From Acutalibacteraceae bacterium (GTDB lineage Bacteria; Bacillota; Clostridia; Oscillospirales; Acutalibacteraceae), in NCBI GenBank assembly GCA_045545515.1, contig JAZQBA010000016.1, positions 59,785 to 123,784 of the forward strand: DNA of 64,000 nucleotides, written 5' to 3'. Numbering within the stretch: the first letter of the stretch is position 1; every line of letters begins with the position of its first letter. Both the position numbers and the translations under genes were made by a program. Of this stretch, positions 27,316 through 27,953 are shown one piece after another. Under the pieces are notes generated by a model. It had not been told where the DNA came from. It ran no database searches and was given only the letters and a program-made list of their open reading frames with translations.

Positions 27316-27365
27316 GCGGGACGTCGAGGGCGCCGTCCCGTACAAGAGCGCCGTCCCGTACGGGA
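27316..27365 (-). repeat. REP-like doublet (2 x GTAC-GGGACG unit) downstream of the RAYT terminator
   Basis: Minus strand reads GTACGGGACGGCGCtctt-GTACGGGACG-gcgccctcga-CGTCCC. A 46-nt core (27316-27361) differs by 1 nt from 27764-27809. Confidence 0.75.
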
Positions 27366-27368
27366 TCC

Positions 27369-27411
27369 AAAAAACAAGAAAGCCAAGGCCTATCGGTCTT
27401 GGCTTTCTTGT
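27369..27411 (-). terminator. Terminator overlapping the 3' end of the RAYT-like CDS
   Basis: Imperfect ~13-15-bp stem acaagaaagccaagg / ccttggctttcttgt (minus-strand read, one mismatch) with the TAG stop in the loop, followed by T6 on the minus strand. Confidence 0.8.
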
Positions 27412-27953
27412 TGCAACTTCCATTTTTGCGGATTGTTGTCCATATATTCGCAGATTCTTAAATAATCCTCGTGATTGCGGATAACGTGGTCGTAAAAGGA
27501 ACGATGAAAAATATTATGCCCGATTTCATTATTGACAAACCGTTTTAACGTTGAAATTGAATGCGACAACAAATTATTCGTACGGGACGGCGCCTTCGAC
27601 GTCCCGTTTTTATTGTTGATTGACAAGATTAAATGAACATGATTTGGCATTATAACATATTTGTCAACCGTTATTTCTGGAATTTTATTGGTCGATAAAA
27701 TATATTTTTCGACAATTTCGCCCGTTGGTGATAAGGCAATGCGGGGAGAGATTTGGGCGTTATGCGGGACGTCGAGGGCGCCGTCCCGTACAAGGGCGCC
27801 GTCCCGTACGATTTTCCCCAAGATGTTTTGATGATCACGGGTACAAAGCGTAATAAAATACGCGCCGCTTTGGTTGTAATCAAAATCCTTTAATCTCGCC
27901 CGTTTTCGCTGCGGTAAATTCCCGTCAAACATCTTATAAAACCGCTTCTTCAA
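27390..27953 (-). CDS. IS200/IS605-type Y1 (HUH) transposase, REP-associated (RAYT-like)
   Basis: GAYFITLCT, HUH motif PNHVHLIL and C-terminal FYDHVIRN..EYMDNNPQKW. No tnpB and no IS ends. The start region overlaps the engB stop, and an alternative ATG at 27932 lies just after that stop. Confidence 0.8.
   Translation of the reverse strand: MKKRFYKMFDGNLPQRKRARLKDFDYNQSGAYFITLCTRDHQNILGKIVRDGALVRDGALDVPHNAQISPRIALSPTGEIVEKYILSTNKIPEITVDKYVIMPNHVHLILSINNKNGTSKAPSRTNNLLSHSISTLKRFVNNEIGHNIFHRSFYDHVIRNHEDYLRICEYMDNNPQKWKLQQESQDR
27580..27605 (+). repeat. REP-like unit inside the RAYT CDS (inverted orientation)
   Basis: GTAC-GGGACG-gcgccttcga-CGTCCC. Read on the coding strand as NGTSKAPSRT, just after the HUH motif. 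Confidence 0.75.
27764..27809 (-). repeat. REP-like doublet inside the RAYT CDS
   Basis: Minus strand reads GTACGGGACGGCGCcctt-GTACGGGACG-gcgccctcga-CGTCCC, translated in frame as VRDGALVRDGALDVP. Confidence 0.75.

Follow-up and report, generated by a model that had tools for sequence, protein, structure and literature searches.

REP hairpin units at two fixed sites within a RAYT-like gene of Clostridia that carries a GTAC tag

The 64-kb stretch of DNA analysed here, which is referred to as the window, contains a short gene for a putative Y1 HUH enzyme, and small hairpins are found both within the coding sequence and directly downstream of it. This raises the questions of whether the hairpins are REP units, on which an enzyme of this kind could act, and what keeps them inside the gene that codes for the enzyme. 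A first-pass annotation had proposed a RAYT-like gene with its likely substrate hairpins in frame and knew of no description of such an arrangement. The claim of novelty fails because in-frame REPs inside tnpA-REP genes have already been described for subclass 2.4 (Quentin, Siguier, Chandler, Fichant 2018, BMC Genomics 19:475; PMC6006769), the equivalent of which in Bertels et al. 2017 is RAYT group 4. A literature search for more recent accounts of in-gene REPs in RAYTs returned only this study by Quentin and co-workers.

The ORF comprises 187 codons when it is counted from a TTG start. The ATG at position 27932 is the more likely start and would give a protein of 180 amino acids, because only 1 nt separates it from the end of the GTPase gene upstream, whose stop codon it follows, and because homologs have an equivalent start. 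Profile comparisons revealed a match of the protein to Pfam Y1_Tnp above the cut-off (E=2e-5, 25 bits; cut-off 23) and, as the best match in the PDB, to E. coli TnpA-REP (4ER8, E=1.5e-6). The score obtained with the NCBIfam equivalog NF047646 (REP_Tyr_transpos) was 60.7 bits and thus below the cut-off of 80. Moreover, the predicted structure (AF2, pLDDT 75.9) has 4er8_A as its top Foldseek match (E=1.4e-6, TM 0.53/0.60), followed by the TnpA proteins of IS608 and ISDra2. The HUH and tyrosine motifs that had been read from the sequence align with those of TnpA-REP, PNHVH with PEHMH and YMDNNP with YIYINP; the signature of class 2 is Y---NP (PMC6006769, Table 1). The gene is located directly after an EngB-like GTPase gene and lon, in a genome that most likely belongs to the gut Clostridia; no tnpB is present beside it, and it occurs once in the 64-kb window. 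Proteins identical to the window RAYT, in three variants of its start, or to the neighbouring GTPase were not found on record. An autonomous insertion sequence with a TnpA of the IS200/IS605 type was considered and rejected, since the motif is Y...NP and not Y...Q, tnpB is missing, there is one copy in the window, and the hairpins lie within the coding sequence and on a single flank. The Pfam score, the first rank of 4ER8, the lack of an adjacent tnpB and the single copy in the window all bear out the proposed RAYT-like protein. Judged from its sequence, the ORF most likely encodes a domesticated REP-associated tyrosine transposase (RAYT or TnpA-REP), is present as a single copy, and resembles the type of subclass 2.4.

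The positions of the gene, its motifs and the hairpin units are given in Table 1. The 14-mer GTACGGGACGGCGC is found five times in the region from 27330 to 27809, with starts at 27330, 27348, 27580, 27778 and 27796. The count remains five when up to two mismatches are allowed, none of 100 shuffles reached five matches, and no further copy is present in the rest of the 64-kb window. Five units of 26 nt had been counted previously; the five matches to the 14-mer stand, but both stem arms (GGGACG-N10-CGTCCC) are present in only three copies, which start at 27318, 27584 and 27766. Likewise, the two reported doublets are indeed tandem copies, but each of them consists of one full hairpin preceded by an 18-nt half unit that contains the tag, the left arm and half of the loop, and each folds to a single hairpin as single-stranded DNA. 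All five copies are tagged with GTAC and not with GT[AG]G. In the GTAC tag, the C is able to pair with the 3' G, which extends the stem to 7-8 bp instead of the 6 bp that had been claimed, and the unit can be described as a 6-8 bp stem with a 10-nt loop. The in-frame readings given earlier, VRDGALVRDGALDVP for the doublet inside the gene and NGTSKAPSRT for the inverted unit, are both correct. The inverted C-site unit is located 10 residues past the HUH motif, in the loop that leads from the HUH strand to the following helix, and its single-stranded DNA fold has a dG of -12.7 kcal/mol (z -4.15).

Table 1. Features of the RAYT-like gene and its REP units, in positions of the 64-kb window
Feature	Position	Strand	Basis or remark
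RAYT / TnpA-REP-like Y1 HUH enzyme gene (predicted)	27390..27953	-	ORF; Pfam, NCBIfam and PDB matches
HUH codons (PNHVH)	27633-27641	-	
Catalytic Tyr170 (EYMDNNP), predicted	27444-27446	-	
His150, at the position of E. coli Q95	27504-27506	-	
N-site REP unit, sense: GTAC GGGACG GCGCCCTCGA CGTCCC G; read VRDGALDVP, tip of a beta-hairpin loop	27765..27791	-	Low pLDDT, residues 52-69
Tandem half unit GTACGGGACGGCGCCCTT, 18 nt; encodes the extra VRDGAL	27792..27809	-	Unpaired in the ssDNA fold
C-site REP unit, opposite in orientation to the gene: GTAC GGGACG GCGCCTTCGA CGTCCC G; gene reads GTSKAPSRT	27580..27606	+	
Flanking REP composite: full unit (27317-27343) and 18-nt half unit (27344-27361)	27317..27361	-	REPtron-like flank
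61-nt direct repeat, downstream copy	27302..27362	.	Partner 27750-27810 in the gene, 92% identical
Terminator-like hairpin over the stop codon: 18-nt arms, 4-nt loop, followed by a T-run	27373..27412	-	

The flanking REP composite is located 46 nt downstream of the stop codon, and REP units accompany the gene on this flank only. Direct repeats of 46 nt had been reported between this region and the gene; the direct repeat is present, but it is longer, and its two copies, which are 448 nt apart from start to start, remain alike for about 14 nt past the REP units into the coding sequence. In a tblastn search, the region 27299-27361 was matched as VRDGALVRDGALDVPRIALIA. A relic of a second gene copy was rejected as the origin of the downstream doublet, only 21 residues being matched. 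The terminator-like hairpin was called from its inverted repeat and the T-run; it was not flagged in a scan for consensus terminators.

That the hairpin follows the grammar of a REP and is a dispersed, mostly extragenic repeat was borne out in related genomes. REPs are G+C-rich palindromes of 20-40 nt that occur in many, mainly extragenic copies, with a GT[AG]G tetranucleotide at the foot of the hairpin. Matches to the hairpin were obtained in at least 120 genome stretches from gut Clostridia, and some of these genomes have matches in at least five separate 8-kb blocks. The family consensus of the 27-nt unit consists of the tag, GGGACG GCGCCYTCGA CGTCCC and a following G. Among the matches listed, 126 of 136 dispersed copies carry the tag GTAG, and one dispersed copy (L091) is tagged with GTAC. 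Only a few of the listed copies (8/138) are located within RAYT homologs, and 59 of 138 (43%) are found inside a six-frame ORF of at least 120 aa, compared to 87.5% of the bases. The hairpin is a genuine REP in these related genomes, and it is depleted from ORFs. The GTAC unit was not found in the viral_contigs scan, and no long DNA match was detected between the window and the 120 genome loci that were compared.

The two in-gene positions are not a peculiarity of the window. About 5,000 homologs have an E value below 1e-10, and 86 homologous genes were surveyed for hairpins. Of these, 53 have a perfect hairpin with its tag at each of the two sites, 14 have one solely at the N site, nine solely at the C site and ten at neither (N site filled in 67/86, C site in 62/86). 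Elsewhere in the coding sequences of the 86 homologs, only six tagged hairpins were found. A copy of the unit outside the gene was observed at 12 of 60 homolog loci, mostly within 100 nt. It had been asked whether an alignment would reveal the two coded segments as lineage-specific insertions. This is not the case, since VG[DG]GALD[VA]P and GTS[KR]APSPT are nearly invariant in close homologs; what is peculiar to the window gene is the extra VRDGAL and a HNAQISP segment, and the homologs of 161-165 aa do not have VRDGAL. Both coded segments were also expected to form surface loops, and in the predicted structure they do fall into loops of low confidence, with pLDDT below 50 at residues 52-69 and 117-125. 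The in-gene units are thus predicted to be translated as disordered surface loops, which would leave the fold undamaged.

The near-invariance of the peptides in the closest 25 homologs, together with their fixed positions, could also mean that VGDGALDVP and GTSRAPSPT are needed by the protein and that the palindromic DNA and its likeness to REPs are secondary or coincidental. However, where residues are identical, codon identity is 92% in the REP-coded columns (1435/1563) but only 43% in the columns elsewhere (3317/7626), and seven C-site units are read in other frames. Furthermore, the homologs have 27 distinct stem 7-mers, with unrelated stems occupying the same sites in the more distant ones, both hairpins are missing in ten genes and one of them in 23, and both peptide segments are predicted to be disordered. 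Conservation of the peptides for protein function is largely refuted by the codon and reading-frame evidence, and we consider it extremely improbable.

The DNA could also be constrained through the transcript. According to this explanation, the inverted units pair mutually or fold locally in the mRNA and thereby throttle translation or set the stability of the mRNA, unrelated to the DNA substrate of the enzyme. Indeed, in the mRNA-sense fold of 27560-27830 the N arm pairs with the C arm (-91.3 kcal/mol, z -6.07), and an inverted repeat between the N-terminal part and the post-HUH region reaches a score of at least 14 in 63 of 86 genes, while reverse-only and complement-only controls yielded no gene at this score. 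However, the stems of the N and C sites differ in 15 of the 53 two-site genes, and each hairpin is compensated internally. It is therefore the local hairpin that is preserved and not the long duplex, and the long-range arm-to-arm duplex was rejected as the selected feature. Moreover, copies of these units that bear an identical 5' tag are scattered outside genes, both in the genomes concerned and in others, and the tag varies together with a DNA-contacting residue of the protein. Selection for transcript structure is thus unlikely as the explanation of the arrangement. It would be compatible with a REP-based explanation. Position and orientation are fixed at both sites, and the constraint is on the DNA, each hairpin keeping its own pairing. 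Because this layout is ancestral to the family, self-targeting of a single gene, which had been put forward for the window, is superfluous.

What sets the window gene apart is the tag and one residue of the protein. The window protein reads FH where the family has a (W/F)Q motif and the homologs have FQ or WQ. His150 aligns with Q95 of the E. coli enzyme; in the co-crystal, this glutamine is inserted beside G4 (PMC3479197). Gln is accompanied by GTAG in 59 of 59 genes. All four His-type genes for which the DNA was read (the window gene, L129, L201 and L202) have a non-G fourth tag base, the tag being GTAC or GTAA, and the nearest relatives of each of the four are Gln-type. As far as aligned genes and proteins can tell, the fourth base of the tag varies in concert with one residue of the protein, and the Gln-to-His change occurred four times independently. 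A further His-type protein, P0233, retains a GTAG-type peptide signature.

The deviating residue and the non-canonical tag might alternatively be signs of recent self-insertion and decay, in which the gene was invaded by its own repeats and is heading to a pseudogene, the 61-nt repeats marking a deletion-prone or rearranged locus. The extra half unit and the 7-aa insertion, both missing from the 161-165-aa homologs, the duplication of the 61-nt block downstream of the gene and the lack of other unit copies in 64 kb are in line with this scenario. However, the reading frame, the HUH motif and the tyrosine of the window gene are intact, and both basic sites are ancestral and not recent. The multiplication of units at these loops recurs in the intact homologs P0011, P0101, L071, L129 and L201. 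Finally, the Gln-to-His change recurs independently with a matching change of the tag, which points to adaptation and not to decay. Degeneration of the locus is therefore very unlikely in our view.

Judged from motifs alone, the known group that the window gene resembles most closely in its layout is subclass 2.4: the HuH motif is NH[IFV]H (NHVH in the window), the Y motif is of the YIxNNP type, to which YMDNNP is close, GT[AG]G-tagged REPs are located beside the gene, the copy number is low, and a REP unit is in frame after HUH, as is the C-site unit of the window. The hosts named for subclass 2.4 are Cyanobacteria, Bacteroidetes and 'various phyla', whereas the window family belongs to gut Clostridia; the text on this subclass speaks of the HuH-Y site and an 8-aa insertion and does not mention a second REP site in an N-terminal loop (PMC6006769). 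Opposite orientations, internally compensated hairpins and codon-level conservation, which are found in the window family, do not appear in that part of the study either, and subclass 2.4 has WQ, in contrast to FH and the GTAC tag of the window (PMC6006769). In the papers that were covered, two fixed sites of opposite orientation, compensated hairpins and a coincidence of Gln-to-His with a non-G fourth tag base were not found.

The best match in sequence and fold is E. coli TnpA-REP with its REPtron (4ER8; Messing et al. 2012; Ton-Hoang et al. 2012). The HUH motif, the tyrosine and the tag-binding segment (W)Q..(E/D)H..R align with the window protein, the substrate hairpin is preceded by a tetranucleotide on its 5' side, and REPs flank the gene. 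However, the identity to the window protein is only about 17%, and the REPs of E. coli, whose long stem contains a bulge, are confined to positions outside the gene, whereas the window has in-gene units and the GTAC tag. The window family also differs in that about 38 aa are inserted behind beta-1 and in the REP-coded post-HUH loop. Palindromes that are tolerated in frame in protein loops, as here, are known from REP and RPE repeats in unrelated genes (Di Nocera et al. 2013, BMC Genomics 14:522; Rickettsia palindromic elements). Such repeats were inserted sporadically and at sites that vary from gene to gene, whereas the window family has two sites in the gene for the cognate enzyme, and it has them family-wide.

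For the TnpA of IS608 and the TnpA-REP of Marinomonas, the guide model holds that the tetranucleotide on the 5' side of the hairpin selects the dinucleotide to be cleaved through base pairing, and with an engineered GTAC tag the Marinomonas enzyme cleaved at GA and GT sites instead (Corneloup et al. 2021, NAR 49:6982). In that work the tag was changed in vitro and the protein was unchanged, whereas the window family has natural GTAC or GTAA tags together with Gln-to-His at the position next to the fourth base.

Taken together, the window probably contains a domesticated RAYT gene with REP units in two in-gene loops and a copy of 1.5 units just downstream, in a lineage whose specificity may have moved from GTAG to GTAC along with the exchange of Gln150 for His. 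By analogy with E. coli TnpA-REP, the enzyme would bind to single-stranded DNA at the folded hairpin together with the 5' tag, and it would cut and rejoin the strand nearby. The in-gene units may be kept identical to the substrate by the same process that maintains the genomic REPs, either by re-insertion or by gene conversion at two permissive loops. The shift of the tag in this lineage would then have gone along with the change of the residue that may contact its fourth base. This explanation is weakened by the ability of the C in GTAC to pair into the stem, which is a poor fit with a free guide base. The GTAC copies could also be inert, since a GTAC tag abolishes cleavage by the TnpA of S. 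maltophilia (PMC8266576). A role of the in-gene units in cis, be it autoregulation or a physical link between the enzyme gene and its substrate sequence, is plausible.

A more far-reaching idea is that the RAYT gene is physically coupled to its substrate, the in-gene hairpins serving as resident reference copies of the REP family that follow the specificity of the enzyme, and that the window represents a natural GTAG-to-GTAC and Gln-to-His switch of specificity that has arisen at least four times. We regard this as a tentative and rather doubtful proposal. If the proposal is true, one residue reads the fourth base of the tag and may redirect the choice of the cleavage dinucleotide, and enzyme and repeat would co-evolve by way of the in-gene REPs.

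RAYTs and REPs belong to the most abundant pairs of enzyme and repeat in bacteria. Efforts to give the enzymes of E. coli and S. maltophilia a new target did not succeed (PMC8266576). The window is one Clostridia example of an oddity that has been published, and the case is largely ordinary except for the rare GTAC variant of the tag. The natural pairs of tag and residue, GTAG with Gln and GTAC or GTAA with His, offer swappable sets for examining the guide model. Furthermore, the two in-gene REP sites, which are conserved at the level of the DNA, provide a handle on whether in-gene REPs regulate the enzyme or tie it to its family of repeats.

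The window RAYT is a REP-associated tyrosine transposase, a TnpA-REP-like Y1 HUH enzyme. It passes the Pfam Y1_Tnp cut-off (E=2e-5; 25 bits vs 23) and matches the NCBIfam model "REP-associated tyrosine transposase" with E=1.4e-16, at 60.7 bits, which is under the equivalog cut-off of 80. With a profile of 26 family members, the best solved relative was E. coli TnpA-REP (4ER8; E=1.5e-6). As the first-pass annotation had expected, PNHVH and YMDNNP fall onto the catalytic motifs of this enzyme, the HUH motif and the Tyr helix, respectively. Moreover, NIF(Q/H)RSFYDHVIR aligns with E. 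coli NIWQPRFWEHAIR. We infer that the window RAYT is catalytically active. The AlphaFold2 model (mean pLDDT 75.9) resembles 4ER8 most and, next to it, the transposases of IS608 and ISDra2. Both REP-coded segments were modelled as low-confidence loops, in keeping with the suspected surface location: residues 52-69 form a beta-hairpin tip (N site) and residues 117-125 connect the HUH strand to the following helix (C site).

Because the homologs start at the equivalent of the eighth codon and an ATG follows the upstream stop codon there, the RAYT product probably has 180 aa and is co-transcribed with the upstream genes. These are lon, for the Lon protease, and a gene for an EngB-like GTPase (Pfam MMR_HSR1) that overlaps the end of lon. 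All three genes appear to share one transcript, and such a housekeeping neighbourhood would be unusual for a relative of transposases. As previously annotated, no tnpB adjoins the RAYT gene among the neighbouring genes examined. In the large downstream ORF, no Pfam families were found at E<=1e-5. The hairpin at the RAYT stop codon was left unflagged by a simple terminator scan.

Coordinates of the features in the window
Feature	Position	Strand	Remarks
RAYT ORF	27953..27390	-	187 aa from TTG start
ATG equivalent to homologs' start	27932	-	1 nt past TAA of EngB-like GTPase gene (27930-27936)
ORF downstream of RAYT	20228-27043	-	2271 aa; signal-peptide-like N-terminus, internally repeated modules
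14-mer, five copies	27330-27809		
GGGACG-N10-CGTCCC hairpins	27318, 27584, 27766		right stem arm present
Isolated unit	27576-27610		
61-nt direct repeat, first copy	27302-27362		downstream of RAYT gene
61-nt direct repeat, second copy	27750-27810		within RAYT gene
Hairpin with 18-nt arms	27373-27412		overlaps RAYT stop codon, then T-run
GTAG-tagged hairpin	18994-19022	-	GTAGGGAACGGCC..GGCCGTTCC
GTAG-tagged hairpin	19043-19070	+	GTAGGGACAGGCGTCCCCGACTGTCCG
ORFs flanking the GTAG-tagged hairpins	17548..18909, 19087..19860		

All five copies of the 14-mer GTACGGGACGGCGC cluster at the RAYT gene; none was found elsewhere in the 64 kb with up to two mismatches allowed, and five matches were reached in 0 of 100 shuffles. 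The five REP units initially counted are real as copies of this 14-mer, but they comprise only three hairpins plus two half units. Since the right stem arm is present in only three of the five copies, each "doublet" comprises one complete hairpin and, in front of it, an 18-nt tandem copy made up of the tag, the left arm and one half of the loop. Folding of the single-stranded DNA gave one hairpin per doublet, and the isolated unit folds with -12.7 kcal/mol (z -4.15). The two copies of the 61-nt direct repeat are 92% identical. The two further, GTAG-tagged hairpins of the window are inverted relative to each other. Thus, the genome holds canonical GTAG REPs of other stem families, which suggests that more RAYTs may be encoded elsewhere in it.

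The unit is a real REP. A scan for the hairpin without its tag, using one genome per species, returned at least 120 stretches. Among the matches listed, the hosts are labelled Clostridia or Bacillota, including Oscillospiraceae, Ruminococcus, Monoglobus, Faecousia and Hominimerdicola aceti, except for a Coriobacteriales MAG and an unclassified bacterium. Only 8 of the 138 hairpin copies listed lie in RAYT homologs, and only 59 of the 138 are inside six-frame ORFs of at least 120 aa, whereas such ORFs cover 87.5% of all bases. The 5' tetranucleotide is GTAG in 126 and the 3' base G in 112 of 136 listed copies, which is the classical REP grammar. Also among the matches listed, some genomes carry the hairpin in at least five separate 8-kb blocks, and a few copies are paired in inverted orientation at distances of 109-185 nt. 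In dispersed copies at five loci (L007, L016, L080, L084 and L092), GCAG replaces GTAG; the first three belong to one genome, JAZNZB01, and this concentration suggests that another lineage-specific tag variant may exist.

The REP-coded segments are not lineage-specific insertions, as had been considered, because close homologs of 161-165 aa carry VG[DG]GALD[VA]P and NGTS[KR]APSPT at the same places. GTAGGGGACGGCGCCCTCGACGTCCCG encodes VGDGALDVP, and the reverse complement of this sequence encodes GTSRAPSPT in a frame shifted by one base. Among 86 distinct homologous genes with DNA, 63 have an inverted repeat between the regions before and after the HUH motif (score >=14; none in reverse-only and complement-only controls), with arms about 43 residues before and 14 residues after the motif. 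Of the 86 genes, 53 have tagged perfect hairpins at both sites, 14 have one at the N site alone, 9 have one at the C site alone and 10 have none at either; elsewhere in the 86 coding sequences there are only six. The N unit is always sense and the C unit always antisense, mostly in one reading frame and in seven cases in another.

Three entities could be conserved here: the peptide, a long duplex between the two arms or the local hairpin. The mRNA of the window gene is predicted to fold mainly into the arm-to-arm duplex (z -6.07), but 15 genes have different stems at the two sites, each compensated within its own hairpin, and the duplex was rejected. The peptide was rejected as well, because the stems vary (27 distinct 7-mers) and codon identity at identical residues is 92% in REP-coded columns vs 43% elsewhere. 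By these three observations together, the local DNA (or RNA) hairpin is the conserved entity.

Extra half or whole units recur in the N and C loops of other homologs, and the additional VRDGAL of the window protein is thus ordinary for the family. Another copy of the gene's own unit lies outside the gene at 12 of 60 loci, mostly less than 100 nt away, resembling the downstream composite of the window. In locus L071 (gene ~6133-6745, oriented locus; 204 aa), the post-HUH loop contains tandem REP-coded units (GTGPSGTPAPTRE three times), which shows that this loop can grow by whole units. In L127, a C-terminal extension about 83 residues past the HUH motif forms a near-perfect inverted repeat of 79 nt (score 73) with the N-terminal part of the RAYT gene, REP unit included, as if part of the gene had been duplicated in inverse orientation. 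In L139, L153 and L154, no stop codon separates the RAYT frame from an aminotransferase-like ORF that follows it (544 aa altogether), be it a real fusion or an apparent one due to ORF extension; in the related loci L156, L157 and L185, the RAYT gene begins just past the stop of the same ORF.

The initial identification of a RAYT gene with in-frame REPs was correct. The arrangement had been thought undescribed; however, Quentin et al. (2018) reported TnpA-Y1 subclass 2.4 with REPs inserted in frame (PMC6006769). The subclass motifs NH[IFV]H, WQ and YIxNNP fit the window family, whereas the window protein has FH. It would best be explained as a subclass-2.4-like RAYT whose cognate REP units are maintained in two permissive loops and on one flank. 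The in-gene units presumably stay matched to the REP family through some process, and any role of these units in cis is putative. The text of that paper (Figure S10 aside) and the other literature found do not mention the second, N-terminal site in opposite orientation, the compensation within hairpins, the codon-level conservation or the covariation of tag and residue.

This covariation concerns the fourth tag base. All five window copies, including the downstream flanking ones, carry GTAC, not GTAG, and the window protein has His (IFHRSF) where more than 90% of its relatives have Gln (IFQRSF/IWQRSY). The position aligns with E. coli Q95 in 4ER8, which together with R21 is inserted between tag G4 and the first stem base in the co-crystal (PMC3479197). 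All 59 Gln-type genes of the DNA set have GTAG. The His-type sample is small, with DNA read for four genes: GTAC occurs at both sites in the window and L202, L129 has GTAC at the N and GTAA at the C site, and L201 has GTAA (two units) at the N and GTAC at the C site. The Gln-to-His change occurred independently at least four times, because the nearest relatives of each His-type protein are Gln-type only. The L202 contig encodes two RAYTs 1.8 kb apart (7566-8164 and 10001-10573), a Gln-type one with two GTAG units, of which one lies upstream of the gene and the other inside it, and the His-type one; two tag specificities may thus coexist in one genome. The single counter-example is P0233, a protein sequence with His at this position (SIWHPRFYDE), whose peptides VGAHSMRP and GRTLCAPT imply GTAG units. 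Besides the small sample, there are two caveats: the last base of GTAC can pair as part of the stem, and among the matches listed only one dispersed copy, in L091, has GTAC. An engineered GTAC tag abolished cleavage by the Stenotrophomonas maltophilia enzyme but redirected the Marinomonas enzyme to GA/GT sites (PMC8266576). The natural tag-residue pairs provide a means to test the effect of GTAC directly.
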